From Oligoflexia bacterium (lineage in GTDB: Bacteria > Bdellovibrionota > Bdellovibrionia > JABDDW01), in assembly GCA_034439615.1 (NCBI GenBank), contig JAWXAT010000010.1:5001-69000 (forward strand): DNA of 64,000 bases. Reading direction: 5' to 3'. The translations under genes were made by a program, and so were the position numbers. Under the pieces are notes generated by a model, which was not told where the DNA came from, searched no databases, and worked only from the letters and a program-made list of their open reading frames with translations. This document shows positions 9,057-58,547 of the stretch, one piece after another (positions within the stretch are counted from its first letter, which is position 1; every line of letters begins with the position of its first letter).

Positions 9057-10264
9057 AACGCTGGGTATTTTTTGTTTTATTTTTATTCGTGATTTTTTAT
9101 ACAACACTTACATTTATTAGTTCACAAGTTACTTTTCCTTTAATTTCATCTTTGAGTTCTGTTTCTAAGTTAAAATATTATGATTACTCAGGTGTTACTC
9201 ATGTGCACTCCAAACTCAGTACAGGCAGTGGTACAATCGATGAAATTGCACAAGCTGCAAGCTTAGCAAATTGTGACTTCTTAATTTTAACTGATCTTAA
9301 CGTCGGTCAAAAACCTGAGTTTGTAGAAGGTTACAAAGATGATGTCGCTGTTATTTGGGCTGGTGAGTTTAGCTATTTGGGCGGTCACCTATTAGCCTAT
9401 GATCTGCCAGAAACAGAATCTTTTAAAGGTTTAGGGCAAGCACAAATTATTTTTAACGATCTCCTCCATCAAAAACCAAGACCCTCTAGTCAGGGTTTTC
9501 TCATTGCTTCACATCCTAATTTACCTCAGCATACCTGGGGAAATTTAAATGACTCCGGGCTCACAGGCATGGAAGTTATAAATCTTGATAGTCTCTGGAG
9601 AGATGAGATTGTAAGTAATAAATTATCAATTCTTTGGAGCATTCTAATTTTACCCTTTAACCCAGATCTAAGTTACTTAAGACTTTTCAATGACCCCGAA
9701 AAAGAATTATCCGCTTGGGATGAAATATTAAAAACACGCTCATTTGTAGGTGTCGGCGGAAGCGACGCCACAGCCAACGCTATTCCATGGCCCAACGAAT
9801 CGTTTAAATTTCCTAGTTACACACAATCGTTTAGCTTGATGAAAAATCATTTACTTTTAAAAAGTGAATTAACCGGGTCATACAAAAGTGACCGCACAAA
9901 AATAATGTCAGCCCTTGCTCAAGGTAATTTTTATTTCAGCGTAGATATTATCGGTGATCCAACTGGGTTTTATTTTATCGGGCAACAACGAAGACAAGAG
10001 TGGTTACCAGGCTCTACTGTTTCAAGAAGTAATGGTCCGATTCGTTTTGTCGTAGATTTAGGCCGCCAGATTGAACTTCCTCACGAGATTATTTTATACC
10101 GAAACGGGGTTAAAGTTGGCATCTCAAACTCTCACCGCTTAGAATATACGGCTGATCAAGCGGGAGCATATCGCGTCACAGTGCGAGTTATCCCCACACT
10201 CCCATTGCCTGATGGCAAAACTTGGTACACATGGATTTTTTCAAATGCCATCAGAGTTGAATGA
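9053..10264 (+). CDS. PHP-domain-like metal-dependent phosphoesterase with N-terminal TM helix
   Basis: HVHS...GTIDEIAQAA...DFLILTDLN resembles the PHP/CehA N-terminal His motif. The gene overlaps the upstream gene by 4 nt. Confidence 0.45.
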   Translation: MKRWVFFVLFLFVIFYTTLTFISSQVTFPLISSLSSVSKLKYYDYSGVTHVHSKLSTGSGTIDEIAQAASLANCDFLILTDLNVGQKPEFVEGYKDDVAVIWAGEFSYLGGHLLAYDLPETESFKGLGQAQIIFNDLLHQKPRPSSQGFLIASHPNLPQHTWGNLNDSGLTGMEVINLDSLWRDEIVSNKLSILWSILILPFNPDLSYLRLFNDPEKELSAWDEILKTRSFVGVGGSDATANAIPWPNESFKFPSYTQSFSLMKNHLLLKSELTGSYKSDRTKIMSALAQGNFYFSVDIIGDPTGFYFIGQQRRQEWLPGSTVSRSNGPIRFVVDLGRQIELPHEIILYRNGVKVGISNSHRLEYTADQAGAYRVTVRVIPTLPLPDGKTWYTWIFSNAIRVE

Positions 10265-10576
10265 CGGAATAACGACAACCAAACCATCCTCTGCAGTAGC
10301 CTGACAACCCAACCGTTCATCGGGCTTCCAATCACGCATTATAATATGTTCTTTTTCAACCCCATTAGGCGGGGCAAGTTTTTCGAGCCCTTTTTCAATA
10401 AATACACGACAAGTCGTACAGCTACCCATCCCGCCGCAGGAGTGATTTAGTGGAATGTCGTTTGCGATAGCCACCTCGAGAATGCTGGGCATGCCCGAAA
10501 ACCAACAGTGGCGCTTCAGAGGCATAAATGTCATGAGTTTGTCCCCTTTAGGGGCGTTTTTTTTCTTTTTGACCAT
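10241..10576 (-). CDS. fdx: 2Fe-2S ferredoxin (adrenodoxin/ISC Fdx type)
   Basis: CGGMGSCTTCRV...LGCQ cysteine pattern. The true start may be the internal Met at 10534 (MTFMPLK). Confidence 0.75.
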   Translation of the reverse strand: MVKKKKNAPKGDKLMTFMPLKRHCWFSGMPSILEVAIANDIPLNHSCGGMGSCTTCRVFIEKGLEKLAPPNGVEKEHIIMRDWKPDERLGCQATAEDGLVVVIPSFNSDGI

Positions 10577-10644
10577 TCGTAGATTCTAAAGTATTCAGTA
10601 ACTACTTGTTAATTATTATCTGTTTTGGGGAATAAAATAAAATC

Positions 10645-11268
10645 ATGCAATTTGTAGCCTTTGATATTGAAACAACTGGCTTTTTACCCCATGTCGATCA
10701 AATCGTTGAAGTCGCAGCTGTTCGTTTTGTTAATGGAAAACCTGTTGAATCTTATGCCAGTTTAGTTAATCCAAAAGTGCGCATTCCACCTGAGGCAGCA
10801 CGCATCCACGGCATCACAGATGAAATGGTTAAAGATCAACCACTCATAGATAAAGTATTAGAAGAATTTTCGACCTTTTGCGCTAGTGATCCTATGGTTG
10901 CCCACAATGCACCTTTTGATACCGAATTTTTAAAAGCTGATATTCAAAAATTTGAAACCAATGCTCCAAAAGGGCTTATTCTTGATAGTTGTGCAATGGC
11001 TCGAAAAGTAATTCAAGGCAGCGCCAATTATAAACTAGGAACCCTTGTGGCTCATTTACAAATTCCAGTAGAGGGGGCTTATCACAGGGCTGAAGCTGAT
11101 GCTCGTTATTGCGGAAATCTTTTTGCAATAATGCTCGGAAGAATTTTTGCCCAAGGTCAACCTGTGGTTTTAGAAAATCTAATTAACCTTTCAAGCGGGC
11201 AACCCGTACGATTTCCACAAGTGCTCAAAAGTTATCGTCAACTAGATCTCATGGGATTTTTGTCTTAA
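10645..11268 (+). CDS. DEDDh 3'-5' exonuclease (DnaQ/epsilon-like domain protein)
   Basis: Exo I FDIETTG, Exo II HNAPFD and Exo III YHRAEADA motifs are present. Confidence 0.75.
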   Translation: MQFVAFDIETTGFLPHVDQIVEVAAVRFVNGKPVESYASLVNPKVRIPPEAARIHGITDEMVKDQPLIDKVLEEFSTFCASDPMVAHNAPFDTEFLKADIQKFETNAPKGLILDSCAMARKVIQGSANYKLGTLVAHLQIPVEGAYHRAEADARYCGNLFAIMLGRIFAQGQPVVLENLINLSSGQPVRFPQVLKSYRQLDLMGFLS

Positions 11269-24940: not shown

Positions 24941-26770
24941 ATGTTAAGCGCACTTAAAAGATTCATGGTCGGCGTACCACTTTCAACAGACCGCGTCAGC
25001 CACGAACGACTCTCTAAACGAAAAGCCTTAGCTGTATTTTCCTCTGATGCCCTTTCATCTGTTGCCTACGCCTCTGAAGCTATAATTCTTGAACTCGCCA
25101 AAGCTGCAATTATTGTCCACGCACTTCCCTGGACATGGCCAATTTCACTAAGCATTGTTGGCTTGTTGTGGATTTTAGTCTTGAGCTATCGCCAAACCAT
25201 TTCTGCTTATCCAAATGGCGGTGGCGCCTACACAGTGAGTAAAGAAAACTTAGGAGAAAATGTTGGCCTCGTTGCGGGAGCATCTCTACTTATAGATTAT
25301 ATTTTAACAGTCGCTGTTTCTATTGCAGCTGGTGTGGCCGCCGTTACGTCAGCATTTCCGACGATGCTGCCGCATAGTGTGGCGATTGCAAATGTTGCGA
25401 TTTTAATTTTGATGTTTATGAATTTGCGAGGCATACGCGAATCAGGAAGCGTTTTTGCTATTCCGACTTATGTTTTTATTATTGGAATGTTCATTTTATT
25501 TGCTTGGTTAGGAATTCAATCCATTTTTATTAATCCACCAGAAGTTACAACTCCACTCATGCCTCAAACAACTGATGGTGTTGGTATTTTTATGATCTTA
25601 ATTGCCTTTTCAAGTGGTTGCGCAGCACTCACGGGAGTTGAAGCCATCAGTAATGGCGTAACAGCATTTAAACAACCCGAACAAAAAAATGCAAAAACAA
25701 CTCTTGTGTGGATGGCAATACTGCTCGCCATTTTATTCGCGGGGGTTAGTTACTTCACGCACGTTTACAATATTATGCCTAAAGATCATGAAACTGTTAT
25801 TTCGCAATTGGCGCGCATCACGGGCAGCAATCTTTTTTATTACTTCATTCAAGCGTCAACTGCTTTGATTTTATTTTTAGCTGCCAATACAAGTTTCAAC
25901 GGATTTCCCTTAGTCACTTCACTCTTAGCTGAAGATCGATATTTGCCAAGACAACTCGCATCGCGCGGAGATCGCCTGGTGTTTAGTAACGGCATTATGG
26001 GTCTTGGTTTAATTTCGATGTTTCTCATCTGGATTTTTAAATCAGACGTTCATCTTTTGATTCCACTCTATGCTATTGGGGTTTTCTTAAGTTTTACTTT
26101 GTCACAAGCGGGCATGGTGAAACATTGGTATGTGCACAAAGGCAATAACTGGCAACGCAATATCGTGATCAACGCTGTTGGTTGCTTGACTACTTTTGTG
26201 GTTCTTATGGTTATTGTTATTACAAAATTTCCTCAAGGTGGTTGGCTCGTTTGTCTGATGACACCACTTTTGGTTTTTCAATTTCGCCGCATCAAACATC
26301 ACTACACACTTGTCGGAAGTCAACTGCGCCTTGACGGGCCACCACCAGAAACCCCGCCCATTTCTACACATCACGTGGTGATTCCTGTTTCAGGAATTCA
26401 TCGTGGCGTTTTAGAAGCACTGAATTACGCTCGAAGCATTAGTAAAAACATCACAGCTTGTTACATCGACATTACTCCTCGAATCACAGAGCGCATTATT
26501 AATGAATGGGGAATATATGGAATGGGTGTTGAGCTTAAAATATTGCCTTCACCTTACCGCTCAGTGACGCGGCCATTATTTGATTTTATTGCTGAAGAAA
26601 TGAAGCGAAATCCCGAAGGTCGAATTACCGTAATTATTCCTGAGTTTGTTACAGCAAAATGGTGGCAAAACATTCTGCATAATCAAACCGCAATTATCAT
26701 AAAAGCCGCCCTCGCCTTCAAACGCCGCGTCGTCGTAACCACCGTCCGCTATCACCTCACCCACGGCTAA
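24941..26770 (+). CDS. APC-superfamily permease with cytoplasmic C-terminal domain (KimA-like K+/H+ symporter candidate)
   Basis: SSDALSSVAYASEA N-terminal motif, ~12 TM helices and a ~150-aa soluble C-terminal domain. Length is 609 aa, similar to KimA. Confidence 0.65.
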   Translation: MLSALKRFMVGVPLSTDRVSHERLSKRKALAVFSSDALSSVAYASEAIILELAKAAIIVHALPWTWPISLSIVGLLWILVLSYRQTISAYPNGGGAYTVSKENLGENVGLVAGASLLIDYILTVAVSIAAGVAAVTSAFPTMLPHSVAIANVAILILMFMNLRGIRESGSVFAIPTYVFIIGMFILFAWLGIQSIFINPPEVTTPLMPQTTDGVGIFMILIAFSSGCAALTGVEAISNGVTAFKQPEQKNAKTTLVWMAILLAILFAGVSYFTHVYNIMPKDHETVISQLARITGSNLFYYFIQASTALILFLAANTSFNGFPLVTSLLAEDRYLPRQLASRGDRLVFSNGIMGLGLISMFLIWIFKSDVHLLIPLYAIGVFLSFTLSQAGMVKHWYVHKGNNWQRNIVINAVGCLTTFVVLMVIVITKFPQGGWLVCLMTPLLVFQFRRIKHHYTLVGSQLRLDGPPPETPPISTHHVVIPVSGIHRGVLEALNYARSISKNITACYIDITPRITERIINEWGIYGMGVELKILPSPYRSVTRPLFDFIAEEMKRNPEGRITVIIPEFVTAKWWQNILHNQTAIIIKAALAFKRRVVVTTVRYHLTHG

Positions 26771-26773
26771 AAA

Positions 26774-26941
26774 TGCACGGCCTTACTTTTGGTAATTATT
26801 TGAGTTAATTTGCATTTAAAAAGCAAACAAACGGCTCCTCAGGTTTTTTCCATCTAGATTTAAGTCTTAAAAACCTCAATTCCACTACATTCGTTATTAT
26901 ATCCAATTAAAGCTCATAATTACCAAAAGTAAGGCCGTGCA
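26774..26941. repeat. Inverted-repeat element, copy 1 (26-bp perfect arms, 116-nt spacer)
   Basis: tgcacggccttacttttggtaattat ... ataattaccaaaagtaaggccgtgca. It starts 3 nt after the permease stop. A related copy lies at 41591-41689. Confidence 0.75.
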
Positions 26942-27054
26942 TTTCGTGGCTCGACGGAGGTCCTCAAGTATTCAAGGGTTTGGGCCGATATAATCATTGG
27001 TGAGATGTGTTTAAGCGCATCCATTGATGTCTATTTTATTACCCGGAGGGGCAG

Positions 27055-27228
27055 ATGAAAAAATTTATGGCAATTTTAAAAGATGAAAACGGCCAGGGGA
27101 TGCTTGAGTACATTCTACTTGTTGGCGTACTTGCGACCATCATTCTTGTTTTTAAAGGCCAAATTTCCGGCTTAATTACAAAGTGGACAGGTAATGTCGG
27201 CGATGCTGGCGACAATGTTTTTAAATAA
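27055..27228 (+). CDS. flp: Flp-family pilin (57 aa; below the ORF-track threshold)
   Basis: MKKFMAILKDENGQGMLEYILLVGVLATIILVF shows the Flp G/XXXXEY processing motif followed by a hydrophobic helix. Confidence 0.75.
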   Translation: MKKFMAILKDENGQGMLEYILLVGVLATIILVFKGQISGLITKWTGNVGDAGDNVFK

Positions 27229-27277
27229 TTAACGGGCGAGACATAGAAGTCTCAATTTATCGGAGAAGGGCTAAAAA

Positions 27278-27499
27278 GTGAATGCGGCAGGGCAAGCACT
27301 TGTAGAATTCGTTCTACTCACGGCTATCTTTTTAACTTTCATTGGCGTCATCGCCAAGAAGGTCCCGCTTACTTTTAGCAGTGCCACACCCTATCTCGGA
27401 GGTAAAATCCAACAACGCCTTGAAACAGGCGGGGGTTTTGCCAAAGGCGCATGGGCTGTTCCTGTGAAATCAAAGGGAGGAGTGGATAATGATAAATAA
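27278..27499 (+). CDS. Second Flp/pilin-like protein
   Basis: AGQALVEFVLLTAIFLTFIGV prepilin-like N-terminus. 73 aa. Confidence 0.5.
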   Translation: MNAAGQALVEFVLLTAIFLTFIGVIAKKVPLTFSSATPYLGGKIQQRLETGGGFAKGAWAVPVKSKGGVDNDK

Positions 27500-27983
27500 C
27501 TACACTCTTCTTTGCGCATTTGGAATTTTAACCGCTGCGACAATTACCGACTTTCGCACTCATCGCATACCAAATAAACTCATGCTCATCAGCGCTGTTA
27601 TTTCAGTAATCGTAGTTGTAATTACAGCAGGCGGAGCTGGGTTAACAAATGCAGGACTTGGGTTTTTAACAGGCTTTGGATTTTATTTTCCTTTGGCTTG
27701 GTTTGGCGTGATTGGTGGCGGTGATCTTAAACTTTTAGCAGTAGTTGGCATCACCACTGGTGCGCTTAACATTTTGATGATCGGACTCTTCTCACTCATC
27801 TGGGGTGCGATCTTTGGCGTTTTGCAATCTGCATTTCGCGGAGAAATTAAGGCTGTTTCACAAAATCTTTTGCATTTATTTTTATTTAAAAAAATCGAAA
27901 ATAAACAACTTCATCGTTTTCCATTTGCAGCATCAATGTTGATGGCAGCACTTACTCAATGGTCATGGAGCAAAATGCCATGA
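27489..27983 (+). CDS. cpaA: Prepilin peptidase CpaA/TadV (A24 family)
   Basis: ITDFRTHRIPN, a second Asp motif (GGGDLKL) and the multi-TM architecture. Confidence 0.8.
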   Translation: MINNYTLLCAFGILTAATITDFRTHRIPNKLMLISAVISVIVVVITAGGAGLTNAGLGFLTGFGFYFPLAWFGVIGGGDLKLLAVVGITTGALNILMIGLFSLIWGAIFGVLQSAFRGEIKAVSQNLLHLFLFKKIENKQLHRFPFAASMLMAALTQWSWSKMP

Positions 27984-28240
27984 AAAATTTAAAACGATTG
28001 AAATCAAAATCAGGTCAAGCTCTTGTAGAGTCAATTCTTCTGATGGCCGTAGTCATCGTATGTTGGACTGGCGCTGCAAAAATTTTACGTGAAAAAGGTT
28101 TGTTTCAAAATGTGTTCGGAAAATCTTGGGGCAAACTTTCAACCGTAATAGAATTTGGAATACCCGTCACCGCTCGCGGGACTGCTGCGCCTAATCACCC
28201 AACGGCTTTTCAACGTCACTCAACGCGGGTGTCAAAATGA
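27980..28240 (+). CDS. TadE-like pseudopilin
   Basis: SGQALVESILLMAVVIV N-terminus. Confidence 0.45.
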   Translation: MKNLKRLKSKSGQALVESILLMAVVIVCWTGAAKILREKGLFQNVFGKSWGKLSTVIEFGIPVTARGTAAPNHPTAFQRHSTRVSK

Positions 28241-28845
28241 AAAATATATTAAATCAATCAGGGCAACTCACCGTAGACTTCATGTTTTCACTGATTCTTA
28301 TTATCAGCATCTCTACTCTTTTAGGCGCACTGACATTTGCATTAACATTAACCGAAGTCGTACAGTATGTGAGTTTTGCCGGAAGCCGCGCTTATTTTGC
28401 AGCCGATCTCACCGAGACAGATCAAAAAAATGTTGGAAATAATAAAATGGAAGTTCTCACAAAGAGCTTACCCTTCTTAGCCTCAGCGCAAAAAGCTGGT
28501 TGGATCGTTCTTCCACCCCAAAGCCGCGATGTCGGAGATTTCACCGCGTATCGAGAACAAATAAATGCTCCATCTACCCGTAATCAATTTGTAGGCGCAC
28601 AAATCAAATTTATAATTCCGATATTAAATTTAAACTTACCTTTTTTGGGTGAAGCTATTGAACCGCCAAACGGAGGTTCTTTTAAAGCTACGGTATCAAG
28701 TTTTTTACTTCGAGAGCCCTCTTTTCAAGAATGCTCCAAATTCATGTCAACAAGTTATAAGGCACTTCTTGAAGTGGTCTCGCCAACATGCCCCGGGGGT
28801 TGTGATGCCGGAAGATTTATACCAATTACAGATAATGGATGTTGA
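28237..28845 (+). CDS. TadE/TadG-like pilus assembly protein
   Basis: SGQLTVDFMFSLILIISI N-terminal pilin-like segment followed by a soluble domain. Confidence 0.45.
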   Translation: MKNILNQSGQLTVDFMFSLILIISISTLLGALTFALTLTEVVQYVSFAGSRAYFAADLTETDQKNVGNNKMEVLTKSLPFLASAQKAGWIVLPPQSRDVGDFTAYREQINAPSTRNQFVGAQIKFIIPILNLNLPFLGEAIEPPNGGSFKATVSSFLLREPSFQECSKFMSTSYKALLEVVSPTCPGGCDAGRFIPITDNGC

Positions 28846-29324
28846 TGATGAAAATGTGTAAGAAAAATAAAAAGGATGAAAAAGGTTTTGCACTTGTAGA
28901 AACTTTAGCTTTTTTATTTGTGTTCATCACACTCACTGCTTACGTCATTGATTTTTTCACCGTCATTCATACAGGTATTTTAAATTCTATTGCTGCACGC
29001 ACCTATCTTTTTGAAACACTTCAACATCGCAGCAATCCAAACACTCTTCGACAAGAACTTACACTAGAAGAGGCCAAGCAAAAAGGGGTTGATTTCACAG
29101 CCGACGGACAACGATTTCACGCCATAAACGACGAAGATCAATTAGAAAATGATAATGCTCAAATCAGTGCCGTTGGTAGAATTTTAACTCAGGTAAAAGA
29201 AGATAATCAAGTTAAGCCAAGTATCACGCAGTCTGATCGATTGGATGATCGCACTTCAAAAGCATCAACGATCGTTATTAAATCTGGTTACGGAATTTGC
29301 TTAGATGCTCGGTGCGGGGGATAA
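28839..29324 (+). CDS. TadE-like protein
   Basis: EKGFALVETLAFLFVFITL N-terminus. Confidence 0.45.
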   Translation: MLMMKMCKKNKKDEKGFALVETLAFLFVFITLTAYVIDFFTVIHTGILNSIAARTYLFETLQHRSNPNTLRQELTLEEAKQKGVDFTADGQRFHAINDEDQLENDNAQISAVGRILTQVKEDNQVKPSITQSDRLDDRTSKASTIVIKSGYGICLDARCGG

Positions 29325-29326
29325 GT

Positions 29327-30247
29327 ATGAATCAAAACAGTAGAACATTTTGGGTATCAATGGGATGCGCACTCGTGGCGATGTTTCTTATTTACAGTTA
29401 CACTCAAGAGCAAAAAGCCCAATACGATAAACGCTACGGCACAACAAAAACAGTTCTCATTGCATCAAAAGATATAGTCGAAATGATCACTCTTGATGAA
29501 ACAATGTTAACTCAAGAAGAGCGTCCAGTTGATTTTATTCAGCCAGGTGCAATTGAAAACCCCGACGACGCTGTTGGTTTAGTAGCAGCTGCCCCCATTA
29601 AAAAAGGTGAGCAAATTTTACTGACAAAACTTTTAGCCCCCGGGCCAAACACCGGTCTATCACTACAAGTGGCTCCTGATAAACGCGCAGTTACAATTCC
29701 CGTTGACGAAGTCAGAGGCGTTGGAAAACTCATTCGCCCTGGCGATCGCGTAGATATACTTACAAGCATAAGTTATGGAGATGGTAAAAACGAGCGCCGC
29801 GAAGTTAAAACATTGCTCCAAGATATTTTGATATTAGCAACAGGTCTTAATGTCACAAATAATATACCTCGCGTATTACAACTTGATTCATTTAACGGAA
29901 AACCCGTTTATAAAAATCTTAACGGCGACACCGGTTATAATACCGTCACCGTAGAAGTAGATCCCCGTCAGGCGCAAAATCTAATTTACATTTTAAGCGT
30001 TGCGCCCGGAGCAATTTTTCTAAGCTTAAGAAATGGCAATGATAAAATTCTCACACGTTTAAGAACAGCCACAATTGATTCTGTCTTAGAAATGGACAGT
30101 GATCGCGCTTTACAAGCCAAACTTCAACAAGCCCAACAACAAGCAGCTACTGCCACTGCTGCAGCACAAGCTGCTAGCTCTGCCCAACGCGCTCCTGCTA
30201 AAGCGGGCGGCTTTGTCGAAGTTCGTGGCAGTGAAGTTAAGTATTAG
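29327..30247 (+). CDS. cpaB: Flp pilus assembly protein CpaB (SAF domain)
   Basis: N-terminal TM helix, a SAF-like domain, and its position between the pilins and the secretin. Confidence 0.7.
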   Translation: MNQNSRTFWVSMGCALVAMFLIYSYTQEQKAQYDKRYGTTKTVLIASKDIVEMITLDETMLTQEERPVDFIQPGAIENPDDAVGLVAAAPIKKGEQILLTKLLAPGPNTGLSLQVAPDKRAVTIPVDEVRGVGKLIRPGDRVDILTSISYGDGKNERREVKTLLQDILILATGLNVTNNIPRVLQLDSFNGKPVYKNLNGDTGYNTVTVEVDPRQAQNLIYILSVAPGAIFLSLRNGNDKILTRLRTATIDSVLEMDSDRALQAKLQQAQQQAATATAAAQAASSAQRAPAKAGGFVEVRGSEVKY

Positions 30248-39966: not shown

Positions 39967-41589
39967 GTGAAACACAGCACACTGATTATTATTTTCTTAA
40001 CAGTCTTTGGGGTTTACGCTTTTGCGCAACAACCCACAAATAAAGTTTCAGTTAAAAATTCTTATCACAGTCAAATTGATAAACAAATTACTGTTCGCAA
40101 AGTAGGGGTTTTACCCGCAACAGATAACGTTAACGGCCTCTACGCCCGACATTTAGAGAATAAACTTAATGAACTTCTCAAAAACACCCATCGCTTTGAT
40201 CAAGTCGAAGTCAAAGACGCTAACGCACAAAATTCCATTGAAGATTATGAAGGCCAACCTGAACTCATCAAAAAATTAGGCATCAAAAATAATGCCGAGG
40301 CCTTTGTAGCAGGAAGAGTACTTAAACAAAAAAAAGGCTTAGACATCACACTTGATCTCTACCTTGTGTCTGATGGGCAACTCTTTGTTCAAGAACTGGT
40401 TGCAAACGAACCTATTATGCAAACAAAAGAGCTAGAACAAAAAACAACCGAGATGTTCAACAAGCTCATCAACAAAATTCCATACAAAGGCTTAGTACTT
40501 AGCCGCCAGGGAAACCGCGTTACTATTGATATCGGTGCTCGCGATGGAATTCGAAACAATACAGTTGTAAGTGTAGAGCAGGTTATTTCACTAAAAAGGC
40601 ATCCCAAATTTAATTTTCTACTAAGTACAGAAAAAGAAATTATGGGGAAAATCAAAATCATAAAAGCCGATGAAACATTAAGTTTTGGAATTATTCTCTC
40701 CGAAAAAGATCAAGGCGTTATTGCACCTGAGAGTAAAGTAACCGGTCTTGATTTTATAACCTACGCTGATCCCACTGCCGAAATGTTTAGACCCACACCT
40801 CATGGTGAGCTTGGTCAAGACAACGTGAGTTTTGGAAAAAACCCAAGAGAATGGCTTCCACCAAAACAACCCACACTTGGTAAAATCGGATTAGGTTTAG
40901 GTCTTGGCTCACTGAGAAGCTCAACAAGCATTCAAAATACAATTACAAATGAACAAAAATCATATTCAGGTGATGCTCCAATTTACCCACAGATTGATTT
41001 AGCCGCAGAAATTTGGCTGACATCAAATTGGTATATGTCAGGTCTCATTCGACAAGGTGTGTTTAGTGTACCAAATCCTGAAGCGGGAGGAGCCCCGTCT
41101 CGACTAGCTGCAAACAATGCGCATTATGATTTACATGGTGGTTATAAATTTTTACTACAAGATAATTTCTGGGGCCCACAGATCAACCTTCACGCTGGTT
41201 TTGCAAAATACAGTATGTTTGTTGATGCCAGCACCCCACTCACATTCACATCAACTTCTTATAGTGGAATGTATTTAGGCCTTGGCGGTTCACTCCCAAT
41301 TACTAACGATCACGCCTGGTATTTAGATATTAATTTAGATAGATTTTTATACCCCAACGTCACTGAAACTCCCGTATCAAGCGGCGCCACAAGTGACACG
41401 ACAATCACCGCATTCTCTTTTGGCGGCTCATATAAACTCGCCCCTCAATATGGGCTACACGCACATTTAAATTTTGAATTTTACTCAAGCACCTATTCAG
41501 GCGCCGGCAACCGAGGCAACGGCATCATCGGCCTAAACTCAAGCCAAAGCCTAACCACCCTCATCACCGGAATCGACTACATGTTCTAG
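39967..41589 (+). CDS. Putative outer-membrane protein
   Basis: Signal peptide, alternating beta-strand-like C-terminal half, terminal residue Phe. Confidence 0.4.
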   Translation: MKHSTLIIIFLTVFGVYAFAQQPTNKVSVKNSYHSQIDKQITVRKVGVLPATDNVNGLYARHLENKLNELLKNTHRFDQVEVKDANAQNSIEDYEGQPELIKKLGIKNNAEAFVAGRVLKQKKGLDITLDLYLVSDGQLFVQELVANEPIMQTKELEQKTTEMFNKLINKIPYKGLVLSRQGNRVTIDIGARDGIRNNTVVSVEQVISLKRHPKFNFLLSTEKEIMGKIKIIKADETLSFGIILSEKDQGVIAPESKVTGLDFITYADPTAEMFRPTPHGELGQDNVSFGKNPREWLPPKQPTLGKIGLGLGLGSLRSSTSIQNTITNEQKSYSGDAPIYPQIDLAAEIWLTSNWYMSGLIRQGVFSVPNPEAGGAPSRLAANNAHYDLHGGYKFLLQDNFWGPQINLHAGFAKYSMFVDASTPLTFTSTSYSGMYLGLGGSLPITNDHAWYLDINLDRFLYPNVTETPVSSGATSDTTITAFSFGGSYKLAPQYGLHAHLNFEFYSSTYSGAGNRGNGIIGLNSSQSLTTLITGIDYMF

Positions 41590-41590
41590 C

Positions 41591-41689
41591 AGGCACGGCC
41601 TTACTTTTCGTAATCCCAATGATGTTTGCAAATCAATTATTCCGAATAAAATCAGCCATTTAGTGATTACGAAAAGTAAGGCCGTGCCT
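41591..41689. repeat. Inverted-repeat element, copy 2 (25-bp perfect arms, 49-nt spacer)
   Basis: aggcacggccttacttttcgtaatc ... gattacgaaaagtaaggccgtgcct. It exactly fills the gap between two convergent stop codons. Confidence 0.75.
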
Positions 41690-42349
41690 TTATGTAATGA
41701 TGACTGTGAGGTTACTGTGTGATTTTAGTAGTGTGGCTGGAATTAAGGGAGTGGGTTCACTTTCTAATACTTTTTTTAGAATTGCGGATTTTTCTTTTCC
41801 GATTACCACCATGATTATTTTTTCTGCACGCATAAATGCTCCGGCTCCGAAAGTGAAAACATCATTTGTGTTTGCTCCGGTCACGCGGTCTCGGGTTTCA
41901 TCGGCAATGATTACTCGCCCACCCATAAATGAAAGTCCACTTTGGCCAGGCTCATGAAAACCAACATGCCCATTAGGCCCCAAGCCCAAAAGACTTACAT
42001 GGATTTTTTCTGAAATCACATCTTCCACATGCATAAGCATTTGTGCATCGGACCACGATGGATCAATAAGTTTTGATTTATTCTCGACACCCAATGGCAA
42101 AAGAACTTGTTCACGCAATTGACTGTAAAACAGACGGCGTGAATCTATAAATTCATCTATTTGAATGGGGCATAGCTTTTTTGACCAAAAATCTTTTTCT
42201 TGAGAAAAACCCTTATAAATCAATGTCGGTGTACCACCTGTGGGTAAAAAAATATTCAACGCACCTGTGACACCTTGTGCATAAGCCTTTAACAAATCTA
42301 CAGTTGTCGTGGCAACCTCTTGCGGATCTTTGCAGTGAATCAGTTTCAT
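41690..42349 (-). CDS. Glucosamine-6-phosphate deaminase / 6-phosphogluconolactonase family protein (NagB/Pgl-like)
   Basis: …LGLGPNGHVGFHEPG… matches the NagB/Pgl family signature. Confidence 0.7.
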   Translation of the reverse strand: MKLIHCKDPQEVATTTVDLLKAYAQGVTGALNIFLPTGGTPTLIYKGFSQEKDFWSKKLCPIQIDEFIDSRRLFYSQLREQVLLPLGVENKSKLIDPSWSDAQMLMHVEDVISEKIHVSLLGLGPNGHVGFHEPGQSGLSFMGGRVIIADETRDRVTGANTNDVFTFGAGAFMRAEKIIMVVIGKEKSAILKKVLESEPTPLIPATLLKSHSNLTVIIT

Positions 42350-52968: not shown

Positions 52969-53789
52969 ACCATATATAATACCATACTAAAATATGGTAT
53001 TTCAAGGCAAATAAATAATAGTGATTCAAGCTGTTTAAGACTGCAAATTCTTTTAAAAATGGAGTTAACTTTTTCAGAAAAACGGGTAGCAGCCAAAATC
53101 AGCACGGAAAGGCCATAAAAACGGCCAAGTTGAATTTGAAGCCTTCGCTCAAGAGAGGGCTTTTCAAAGAGTCTACCAAATGAAAGCTTTGTCAGTGCCC
53201 AAACGCCCTGAGGTCTCTCATTGAAGATTCCCTTCGGATCCATTTTCAGATTTGACGGTGAGCTACTTATCTAGTTTACTTTCAATATGCACCTCATCAT
53301 GGTCTTTTTATTACTGATCAATTTTCATGCTGAAGCTTCCGACTATTGTCAGAAAAGAGTGGAAGCAAAGCTGATTCAAATCATCTCCCAAGAAAAATTT
53401 GACGGTAGCTGTTAAATTAAAACGAAGACTAAAGTATTGCGTTTAAAGCCTCCTAATGCCGAGAGCGGTACATATAATTGCGAGATGCCTGGATTAGGTA
53501 TTAAAAATATGACAATAGTAGTTCCTAATAAAAAGGAACGACTGAAGCTTAATTCAATGATCGGAAAGATAGTCATTTTAAAATATGAAAAGAGCTGCGG
53601 TGAGGATAGCGAATGTTTGGAAATTTGGAAGTTTCCTTTTGAAGACTAACTTTGGCCATCTGCCACTCCTATAAATTTCAACGGCTGGACGATTTAGAAT
53701 TGATTCAGCCGTTCTATTTTTCAGGAATTTCCTAAGCTCAATAAAGCGCTGTCGAGTAGTCATATAATATTCTCCTAATAAATAAAGTT

Positions 53790-55690
53790 ATTGTGAGAAG
53801 ATTTATTTCCCTCACAGAACCGTACTTGCGATTTTCCCGCATACGGCTCTTCGTAATATTCACGTGCTAGAAAATCCGGTATAAAAGTTATGATGGATCG
53901 CAGGCGTGGGAAGAGGATGTCGCTTGAGGTACAGTGAATAGCCCTCAAGGTTAAAACTCTTTTTCTGACTGCGCCGGTTAAGCCACTTAAATACTAACCG
54001 CTTAACCGTGGAGTTAAAGTCGTTAATACTTCGGTAGTTTCCACTTACCCCATAATATTGAAAGTGCCCTCGTAGCTTTGCCTTCAATATTTTCCATATC
54101 ACTTCGAGCTGATAGAGATTGCGTGAGTTTTTCAACCACAGATTCATCTCCGTTATTTTCGCTGTGAACTTTTTCCGATCTGTTTTCCGACCAAGCTTAA
54201 AAGTGTTCTTCTTCGTTCGGTCAATAAAGTGAGTAAAGCCTAAAAAGTTAAATGTTGCTGGACGCTGCTCTTTGCTATGCGCATTTTGCTTGGCAAATCG
54301 ACCAAACTCAATCACACGCGTCTTCTCTTCTGAGAGCTCAAGATTAAATTTCTTGAGCCTTGCAGTCAGGGCTTCGCGGATTTTAATGGCGTCGTCTTTG
54401 TATTGTACACAGATGATAAAATCATCAGCGTATCTAATCATTTCAACGACTCCACGACAGTTTCGCTTCACCACTTTCTGCATCCAAAGATCCAGCACAT
54501 AATGAAGATAGATGTTGGCAAGGATCGGAGAGATCACGCCACCTTGAGGTGTGCCCTCATCAGTTGCGTGAAGCTTTCCTTCTTCCATGTATCCATTCTT
54601 CAAAAAGCGTTTGATCAATCGAAGAAGGGCTGGATCGTTAATTCTCACGCTCAAGAACTTCATCATCCATTCATGATCGACATTATCAAAGAAGCCTTTG
54701 ATGTCGGCATCGATGACGTGGTTGATCGGATTCATCATGATAACCTGGTTCAGTTGCTTGAGCGCTTGGTGACAGCTCCGGTGAGGTCTAAAGCCGTAGG
54801 AAAAATCTAGAAAGTCGACTTCGTAAATGGATTCTAGTATCCGCACAATCCCGCGTTGAACGATTTTATCTTCAACCGACGGAATTCCAAGAGCCCGTTC
54901 TTTCCCATTTGCCTTTGCGATATATGACCTTCGCACCGGCTGCGGTTTGTACGACTGGGCTTTCATGCGAGCGACTAGTGCCGCTACATTCGCATCTAAA
55001 TTCTTTCCGTATTCTTCGACACTCACACCGTCAATGCCGGCCGCTTTTCCGCGCTTAAGCATTCCAAAACATTCCTTTAAGCTTTCTTCCCCTAGCAGAT
55101 ACGCAACATTATTCACGCGACATTTCTCGTCCCGTTTCACAAGCTCCGATATGAGATTTAATTTCGTTTGCATGTATTTTCCTGACTCTGAAGTTCAGTA
55201 CCTGTTTCCTTAAATCTCTGCATACTAACGCTGATCCCTTCAAGTGAGGCTCTTTCCTCGCGCCGGACATTACTCCGACTACTCCTTTAATACGAACCAG
55301 TCCGACTTCCTGCTATTCATCCCCGCATCCTCTCTTTTTCAGATTGTTTGCCGGTATCCATTGCTGGAAAATAACAGGATCTCCCAAGTTCCGATCGCTT
55401 CTCAATGACTTCGTACCGCGGACTTAGACCCCGAAAGAGAAAACAAGTTCTCGCATTACGACCTTGCTCTTACTGCCTTCCGATACATGAACATCGTCGG
55501 CCTCTTTAACACTGGAAAATTTCGGGGCTCAATACCTTCACTTGCGTTGCGGTCCAACGTCTCCTGTCTTGCGGCTTCACGGATCTTGTTACCGCCACCC
55601 GTGCGCATTAAGTTTCAGGCCGCCTGCTCGGCTTTGCCTGCGTCGGATTTCTTACCGACAAGAAACGATCGATTTAGCTTGGCGCACTCA
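53790..55690 (-). mobile_element. Bacterial group II intron (~1.9 kb) with an RT/maturase ORF and no endonuclease domain
   Basis: On the minus strand the 5' end reads GTGCGCCAAGC… (group II consensus GUGYG) at ~55690. Domain V GAGCCGTATGCGGGAAAATCGCAAGTACGGTTC lies at ~53815-53850, and a domain VI-like hairpin GTGAG…CTCAC follows. The RT ORF sits inside. Confidence 0.8.
53860..55173 (-). CDS. Group II intron-encoded reverse transcriptase/maturase
   Basis: RT domains 0-7 including YADD (IRYADDFIICV) and a maturase X region. The protein ends without an HNH/En domain. Length is 437 aa. Confidence 0.9.
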   Translation of the reverse strand: MQTKLNLISELVKRDEKCRVNNVAYLLGEESLKECFGMLKRGKAAGIDGVSVEEYGKNLDANVAALVARMKAQSYKPQPVRRSYIAKANGKERALGIPSVEDKIVQRGIVRILESIYEVDFLDFSYGFRPHRSCHQALKQLNQVIMMNPINHVIDADIKGFFDNVDHEWMMKFLSVRINDPALLRLIKRFLKNGYMEEGKLHATDEGTPQGGVISPILANIYLHYVLDLWMQKVVKRNCRGVVEMIRYADDFIICVQYKDDAIKIREALTARLKKFNLELSEEKTRVIEFGRFAKQNAHSKEQRPATFNFLGFTHFIDRTKKNTFKLGRKTDRKKFTAKITEMNLWLKNSRNLYQLEVIWKILKAKLRGHFQYYGVSGNYRSINDFNSTVKRLVFKWLNRRSQKKSFNLEGYSLYLKRHPLPTPAIHHNFYTGFSST

Positions 55691-57731: not shown

Positions 57732-58547
57732 ATGACAATTCTTCAAAGCATTATCCTTGGAATCGTTCAAGGTTTGGGAGAATTTCTCCCCATCTCTAGT
57801 TCCGCTCACCTTATTATAGTTCCGTGGCTTATGGGCTGGCCAGATCACGGCCTTACTTTTGATATCGCACTTCACTTCGGCACACTGACAGCGCTTCTTA
57901 TTTATTTTCATCGCGAGTGGTACGAATTAAGCCTTGCTTGCCTCCGCTTACGGCCAAAACATTTCAAGCCCGGAGCTCTTAATAACGACACCAATCTTAG
58001 GCTTGCACTTTATATTGTGATCGCAACAATACCGGGTGCGATTTTAGGCCTCTTACTTGAGCACCATGTAGAGACTGTGTTTCGTAATCCAAAACTCATC
58101 GCATTTACTCTAAGTGGCATGGGTATAGCGTTGTGGATTGTGGATAAGAAGGCGCCGAAATCTCGAGACATCGTAAGTCTCACATTAAAAGATGCAGTGA
58201 TCATTGGCATCTCCCAAGGCCTTGCATTGTTTCCGGGAATTTCAAGATCTGGCATCACAATCACAACTGGTCTCTTACGTGGACTCGATCGCGGAGCTGC
58301 CGCAAGATTTTCATTTATGCTTTCAATGCCCATCACAGCGGGTGCTTGTATTTTAAAACTTCGACATCTAACCGCCGCTGATTTTACAAATAGTTTTATC
58401 GTAGGAGTAATCGTTGCAGCAATCTTTGGTTACTTAGCAATTGGTGGATTAATCAGGTTTTTGCAAACAAGGTCATACGGTGTATTTGCCGTCTATCGCG
58501 TGGTGTTGGCTCTTATTATTGGGGTGGTGATTTTTTACCGCGGTTAA
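57732..58547 (+). CDS. uppP: Undecaprenyl-diphosphatase
   Basis: GLGEFLPISSSAHL and the eight-TM UppP/BacA architecture. The start is taken at the internal Met (MTILQSII). Confidence 0.85.
   Translation: MTILQSIILGIVQGLGEFLPISSSAHLIIVPWLMGWPDHGLTFDIALHFGTLTALLIYFHREWYELSLACLRLRPKHFKPGALNNDTNLRLALYIVIATIPGAILGLLLEHHVETVFRNPKLIAFTLSGMGIALWIVDKKAPKSRDIVSLTLKDAVIIGISQGLALFPGISRSGITITTGLLRGLDRGAAARFSFMLSMPITAGACILKLRHLTAADFTNSFIVGVIVAAIFGYLAIGGLIRFLQTRSYGVFAVYRVVLALIIGVVIFYRG

Follow-up and report, generated by a model that had tools for sequence, protein, structure and literature searches.

Two long inverted repeats in the genome of an Oligoflexia bacterium are probably non-autonomous doublets of a REP-type repeat unit that belongs to the RAYT locus (REPtron/TIRtron) of the same genome. 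Both were found in a 64,000-nt stretch of DNA, which was analyzed as a whole and is denoted the window below. Each of the two elements (copy 1 and copy 2) consists of two copies of one short repeat in inverted orientation, with spacers of 116 nt and 49 nt, respectively, which is the organization of a REPIN, or doublet. Both palindromes are real and lie well past chance expectation. Their components, in window coordinates, are as follows.

26771-26799, plus strand: copy 1 left repeat unit, AAATGCACGGCCTTACTTTTGGTAATTAT, beginning at the base after the permease stop
26800-26915: copy 1 spacer, 116 nt, the outer 11 nt on each side still partly complementary
26916-26944, minus strand: copy 1 right repeat unit, matching the reverse complement of the left one perfectly
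41591-41615, plus strand: copy 2 left repeat unit, AGGCACGGCCTTACTTTTCGTAATC, 2 nt past the stop of a 540-aa gene, with the outer A-run missing
41616-41664: copy 2 spacer, 49 nt, unique, with no relation to that of copy 1
41665-41689, minus strand: copy 2 right repeat unit, abutting the 6-phosphogluconolactonase stop

The first base of copy 1 is located directly 3' of the stop codon (TAA, 26768-26770) of a gene encoding a 609-aa permease of the APC family (24941-26770), and the right unit lies 110 nt upstream of the start of the flp pilin gene (27055). An earlier note on this DNA described perfect arms of 26 nt at this place; the perfect match actually covers 29 nt on each side, and complementarity runs on at 90% to 40 nt (26771-26810 and 26905-26944). 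The arms of copy 2, also located as described there, are perfect over 25 nt, and the element occupies the 100-nt gap between two convergent genes, the 540-aa gene (stop 41587-41589) and the minus-strand 6-phosphogluconolactonase gene (stop 41690-41692). Thus, the arms of both copies remained perfect upon realignment, and both elements indeed sit in 3' or convergent intergenic gaps, one after the permease stop and the other between convergent stops. The doublets fold with predicted free energies of -60.8 and -45.6 kcal/mol (z scores of -8.9 and -8.8; 0 of 200 shuffled sequences as stable), and each is predicted to form one long, stable hairpin in single-stranded nucleic acid. A search of the whole window against Rfam at gathering thresholds yielded nothing at copy 1 or copy 2; the matches were limited to a group II intron and a tRNA. 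The intron is represented by matches to RF00029 and RF02005 on the minus strand (53751-53851 and 55419-55651), about 1.6 kb apart, presumably domains of one intron with the intron-encoded protein between them.

The conserved repeat unit, as derived from the profile, is about 27 nt long, AAAA[G/T]GCACGGCCTTACTTTTNGTAAT. With up to 3 mismatches allowed, its 22-nt core has exactly 4 matches in the window compared to 0 in 100 shuffled versions, and a profile built from 16 units recovered the same four window units at E-values of 2e-8 or lower and nothing else convincing in the window. Together with the additional units found elsewhere in the genome, these matches bear out the suggestion that the elements represent a repeat family. 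Single units are weakly or inconsistently palindromic, and the window arms on their own show no significant fold. A small hairpin within the single unit (AAGGC-ACG-GCCTT) was considered and discarded: it is not significant and is broken in the T-variant, the one used by copy 1.

Certain units, when combined with a preceding ATTACAAAAA, can form a stem of 10-11 bp, namely, that in contig L010 (-5.6 kcal/mol, z -2.9) and unit A of the RAYT contig L009. The hexamer ATTACA, the complement of the terminal GTAAT of the unit, precedes three units (L010 2372-2385, L009 1294-1300 and window 41693-41699) and, with the unit, produces this 10-11-bp outer stem; in the window, it coincides with the last codons of the 6-phosphogluconolactonase gene. 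TTAC is the target of IS608, and ATTACA could be either part of a longer palindromic unit of about 33 nt or a TTAC-like target.

Apart from the four units, the window contains an exact match to 16 nt of the core, CACGGCCTTACTTTTG, at 57846-57861 on the plus strand (profile E-value 0.0016). This match is located inside a coding sequence for an undecaprenyl-diphosphatase-like protein, where it encodes DHGLTFD, and has no inverted partner. By our own estimate, 128 kb should contain about 3e-5 exact matches to a 16-mer; this one may be fortuitous, or it may be where the repeat originated or a target.

An exact-core scan of metagenome contigs yielded eight loci, with only four other contigs from the Oligoflexia genome, which contribute 3 solo units and the flanks of a RAYT gene. 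This suggests a low-copy family, with about a dozen units in the genome. No match was detected in the viral contigs that were scanned for the core. The single match in a genome collection, within a coding sequence of Balneola and without a partner, was set aside as consistent with chance, which by our own estimate would yield about four matches (19 specified bases, 596 Gb, both strands).

The repeat flanks a single RAYT-type gene. In contig L009 (the same as L019 and L020), five units in inverted orientation surround a 223-aa ORF at 1309-1980.

1271 and 1301, plus strand: L009 repeat units on one side of the ORF
2052, 2082 and 2176, minus strand: L009 repeat units on the other side of the ORF

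The right unit of copy 2 is identical at 26 of 26 positions to the RAYT-proximal unit (L009 1299-1324). The ORF product matches the NCBIfam model NF047646, "REP-associated tyrosine transposase", with an E-value of 1.8e-17 and a score of 63.6 bits, which is under the curated equivalog cut-off of 80, and shows a weak match to Pfam Y1_Tnp. The best solved relative is E. coli TnpA-REP (PDB 4ER8, E-value 7e-8), at low protein identity. The HUH motif (NHFH) and the tyrosine motif YKYxxxNP are invariant among the 13 homologs that were aligned, all 13 of which match Y1_Tnp and NF047646 (best NF047646 E-value 2.3e-21); the IS200 model is matched by 2 of the 13. In addition, the protein has a C-terminal extension of about 80 aa without a Pfam match, in which no HTH-type domain was detected. 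The 223-aa protein is thus a predicted RAYT-type HUH/Y1 transposase, that is, a putative single-strand DNA enzyme related to the IS200/IS605 TnpA. It is the one RAYT gene known in the Oligoflexia genome, and a tblastn search of the window identified none there. The 107 named RAYT homologs come from Bdellovibrionota, and several of them are named "REP element-mobilizing transposase RayT" by JGI.

Two features of the RAYT locus are noted here. A tandem array of three TAACGGC copies (L009 1253-1270) separates the M23 peptidase stop from the first unit. The RAYT stop codon falls within the adjacent repeat unit, as GTAAGG in L009 (1309-1322; unit 1301-1322) and as GTAGG in L011 (8939-8941), so that the 3' end of the gene overlaps the repeat in both, as Di Nocera et al. 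report for some REPtrons and TIRtrons.

Several observations place the RAYT locus and the two doublets in the same genome. Logan sample SRR6448212 and the JGI metagenome Ga0163151 each contain the window contig as well as the RAYT contig. By exact-sequence look-up at NCBI, proteins encoded in the window correspond to SGI74_03095, SGI74_03115 and SGI74_03195 of a metagenome-assembled genome (MAG) labeled Oligoflexia bacterium; proteins of the RAYT contig to SGI74_12065 and SGI74_12085, which by position would make the RAYT itself SGI74_12075; and proteins of contigs with solo units to SGI74_01950 (L003) and SGI74_08955 (L006), all likewise assigned to Oligoflexia bacterium. At NCBI, each deposited genome has a locus-tag prefix of its own. 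Given the common SGI74_ prefix, a single binned Oligoflexia genome therefore carries the two window doublets, three solo units and the RAYT locus, the link being that of a MAG, which is a bin and not a closed genome.

The arms of copy 1 and copy 2 differ by a G/C substitution that is mirrored in the opposite arm, as previously noted, and by two further mirrored differences, one toward the outer edge of the arms (T versus G immediately preceding GCACGG) and one toward the inner edge (GTAATT versus GTAATC); the "compensatory" pattern thus amounts to three mirrored sites in one comparison of two doublets. Mirrored changes in the arms have already been described for REPINs (Bertels and Rainey 2011, PMC3116915) and, therefore, by themselves are no proof of selection on an RNA hairpin or a terminator. 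They are equally expected if a doublet is copied as a unit or if a transposase needs the same sequence at both ends. Hence, of the interpretation in the earlier note, a selected hairpin or palindrome, the hairpin form holds, and the mirrored changes are the expected signature of REP doublets.

A third doublet was detected in contig L004, with a spacer of 8 nt, so that the spacers vary in length (8, 49 and 94-116 nt). The window spacers show no similarity to each other or to any of the fetched DNA, the RAYT locus included, and the copy 1 spacer resembles no other DNA in that set. Being unlike the RAYT locus, they indicate that the doublets did not arise from the RAYT unit by simple internal deletion. 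Neither conserved spacing nor related spacers, as expected of copies of one replicating REPIN, were found; because the spacers differ, the doublets are unlike such copies.

In an alternative reading, copy 2, and perhaps other pairs, consists of two independent single-unit insertions behind convergent stops, the spacer being the original intergenic DNA, an origin that we consider possible but doubtful. Both arms of copy 2 abut stops in the sense orientation, as solo units do, both represent the commonest variant, identical to the RAYT-proximal unit, and the spacer is unique. Such an origin does not explain copy 1, the arms of which show 0 differences from one another at 28 positions, whereas any other unit in the genome differs from them at 3 or more. 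Identical to each other yet unlike all others, these arms appear to share descent or to be homogenized together. Furthermore, complementarity in copy 1 extends 11 nt past the unit and the right arm follows no gene, and independent insertion leaves the L004 doublet with its 8-nt spacer unexplained.

Solo units were found in sense orientation 0-6 nt past a stop codon in three contigs of the Oligoflexia genome (L003 4641-4665, L006 179-205 and L010 2350-2376) and in L007 (166-188), and three of the four window arms are likewise sense-oriented behind a stop codon. At the solo-unit sites, the TAA stop often merges into the A-run of the unit. A transposase that prefers a given orientation or target could account for this adjacency, as could selection. 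In the latter case, the repeat could be a host-selected 3'-end signal, such as a terminator, an mRNA 3' stabilizer, a translation or ribosome-rescue signal, or a protein-binding site, with the RAYT link secondary or ancestral. Besides the position of the units, it can be argued for such a signal that the G-variant unit looks like a miniature stem followed by a T-run and was flagged once by the terminator scan, and that the doublets would make very stable RNA hairpins. However, the terminator scan called neither doublet, the loops are 49 and 94-116 nt long, and only TTT, with no U-tract, follows each stem. The canonical-terminator reading, which the earlier note had raised as a possibility for both copies, was rejected for lack of canonical features. 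The solo units in L003 and L007 are each followed, next downstream, by a separate, ordinary terminator hairpin, the small stem is broken in the T-variant of copy 1, and orthologous genes in relatives lack the motif. No gene precedes one arm of copy 1 or, in L009, the unit beside galU. We consider a host-selected signal unlikely as the primary function, whereas a secondary effect of the repeats on mRNA 3' ends is possible.

A further reading combines both ideas: the unit would be more than selfish DNA, with the RAYT maintaining a sense-oriented signal, within a few bases of stop codons, that acts on translation termination or mRNA 3' ends, and with the doublets as its paired form. This appears improbable; if true, it would amount to a lineage-specific domesticated HUH transposase curating gene-end signals in Oligoflexia.

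Neither target-site duplications nor other direct repeats were found at the borders of copy 1 (cggcta/AAATG...CATTT/cgtgg) or copy 2 (tctagc/AGGCA...TGCCT/ttatgt). Elements of the IS200/IS605 group, such as IS608 and ISDra2, employ HUH/Y1 chemistry and generate no target-site duplications. The lack of direct repeats at the borders fits HUH transposition and argues against a DDE-type MITE. In size (99-174 bp) and in their perfect terminal inverted repeats, the elements do resemble classical MITEs, deletion derivatives of a DDE-transposase insertion sequence, here with terminal inverted repeats of 25-29 bp; MITEs such as Correia elements are of comparable size and have terminal inverted repeats. 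This derivation is nevertheless highly improbable and was rejected for want of duplications; moreover, the sole gene found between such repeats is the HUH/Y1 RAYT, many units occur singly, and the spacers show no relationship to one another. We give next to no credence to a DNA uptake sequence, a short natural-transformation motif often paired as terminators: the layout of singletons and inverted pairs behind genes resembles that of the Neisseria uptake sequence, but the reading was rejected in view of the low count (four units in the 64-kb window and about a dozen genome-wide, with one partial match as the only occurrence inside a gene) and the direct association with a RAYT gene, and the motif is not conserved in relatives.

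The reading of the repeats as REP-type doublets of a RAYT draws further support from homologous loci in related genomes. RAYT homologs are bounded by inverted repeats that match at 24 of 24 positions in L013 (GGGTACGGCCTTTCTTTCTGTAAT, visibly akin to the window arm), at 37 of 37 positions in L014 (two tandem 19-nt units), and at 86% over 42 nt in L015, where a third copy is located nearby; in L011, only degenerate units were identified. GGTAG-type palindromes occur in the units of some of these relatives (L011 and L013). Thus, in L013, L014, L015 and L009, a RAYT-like gene is bounded by non-canonical terminal inverted repeats, which is the organization of a TIRtron, a class in which the repeat is sometimes also dispersed as singles and dimers. 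The unit motif itself is not conserved among the relatives. The arms are identical within a pair and the repeat has diverged between genomes, which is the mirrored-change pattern at a larger scale.

The element is absent at the orthologs of the permease gene (L016-L018) and of the 540-aa gene (L023), in relatives at 55-73% identity with other downstream genes, so that these are not strict empty sites; none of the latter was found in a close relative. The only other assemblies of the window loci, from a second sample (L021 and L022), are 100% identical. Insertion of the doublets at the two window sites is therefore presumed. In the Oligoflexia genome GCA_016715815.1 (L014, syntenic with the window), a RAYT gene with perfect 37-nt repeats lies inside a bacterial microcompartment (BMC) operon (9861-10684), between a BMC gene and an EutN gene. 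In the window genome (L002 1505-1555) and in L017, only 37-50 nt separate these two genes, which suggests that a whole RAYT unit may have been inserted at this site in L014. In the window genome, the microcompartment locus, with an aldehyde dehydrogenase, is located just upstream (before window 22925; L002 1-4815), and a Tad/Flp pilus operon (flp, prepilin peptidase, RcpC, secretin and TadA/B-like genes) occupies window 27055-30247 and beyond, followed by an RHS/YD-repeat gene. This arrangement of pilus and microcompartment genes is syntenic, with inversions, across several Oligoflexia MAGs.

By analogy with E. coli TnpA-REP and the REPINs, mobilization of the doublets by the RAYT would involve recognition of the repeat in single-stranded, folded DNA, and its cutting and rejoining without target-site duplication, whereby repeat units or doublets would spread into intergenic DNA. 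When transcribed, the 25-29-bp stem at the end of the permease gene and between the convergent genes could have secondary effects on mRNA 3' ends, through protection or partial termination, as reported for enterobacterial REPs.

On this reading, two conspicuous palindromes fall into the known class of RAYT-associated repeat doublets, and Oligoflexia (Bdellovibrionota) would possess a system of the REPtron/TIRtron type; the searchable literature yielded no description of such a system for this phylum. Such a small family could serve as a simple case for how enzymes of the RAYT type seed repeat families. For genome annotation, it follows that hairpins of this kind should be called terminators or regulatory RNAs only with transcript data.

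REPINs are REP doublets that form hairpins and are mobilized by RAYTs (Bertels and Rainey 2011, PMC3116915; Bertels et al. 2017, PMC5581495). The Oligoflexia family shares with them the inverted pair with a spacer, the strong hairpin, the mirrored changes, the intergenic location, the repeats flanking a single RAYT gene, and singlets beside doublets, singlets being regarded as remnants of doublets (PMC3116915). Unlike in the REPINs, neither the length nor the sequence of the spacer is conserved in Oligoflexia, the single unit is a poor palindrome, and about a dozen units are visible in the genome compared to the tens to hundreds in classic REPIN populations. For RAYT groups 1 and 4, however, the flanking 16-mers occur at only 12-14 per replicon (PMC5581495), close to the number visible here. 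The present system further differs from the REPIN systems in its host, Oligoflexia (Bdellovibrionota), and in the C-terminal extension of the RAYT.

TIRtrons, or TIRYTs, are RAYT-like genes with terminal inverted repeats, which also exist as small families of single and dimeric copies (Di Nocera et al. 2013, PMC3733652); subclasses of RAYT-like genes and TIRtrons have been discussed by Quentin et al. (2018, PMC6006769). As in TIRtrons, the RAYT-like gene of Oligoflexia is flanked by terminal inverted repeats rather than by textbook REP hairpins, the gene ends within the repeat, and the repeats make up a small dispersed family of singles and dimers; the spacers of TIRtron dimers are 20-100 bp long and may vary in sequence and size. 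Unlike in many TIRtrons, the flanking repeats lack the GGGGWSAS motif, and, unlike in subclass 2.1, C-terminal HTH-type domains (Bac_DnaA_C, HTH_23/28) were not detected in the Oligoflexia RAYT.

Among the solved proteins, the closest relative is the E. coli TnpA-REP (4ER8; described by Ton-Hoang et al. 2012 and Messing et al. 2012, as cited in PMC5581495 and PMC6006769), with the HUH and tyrosine motifs retained. As with E. coli REP/BIME, the repeats are found at gene 3' ends and between convergent genes. Unlike E. coli REP, the Oligoflexia unit contains no GTAG-tagged 35-nt hairpin. With the IS200/IS605 elements, the system shares the HUH/Y1 type and the lack of duplications, and the ATTAC preceding some of the units recalls the TTAC of IS608; unlike these elements, the ends of which are differing subterminal hairpins, it has inverted repeats, and for the Oligoflexia RAYT the RAYT model gives a far better score than the IS200 model. 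Previous work has described doublets as well as singlets, compensatory changes, variation in the spacers, and RAYT-like genes that have terminal inverted repeats on both sides along with dispersed dimers of these repeats (PMC3116915; PMC3733652; PMC6006769), and the combination observed here fits a family intermediate between REPtron and TIRtron, and between a canonical REP and a plain terminal inverted repeat.
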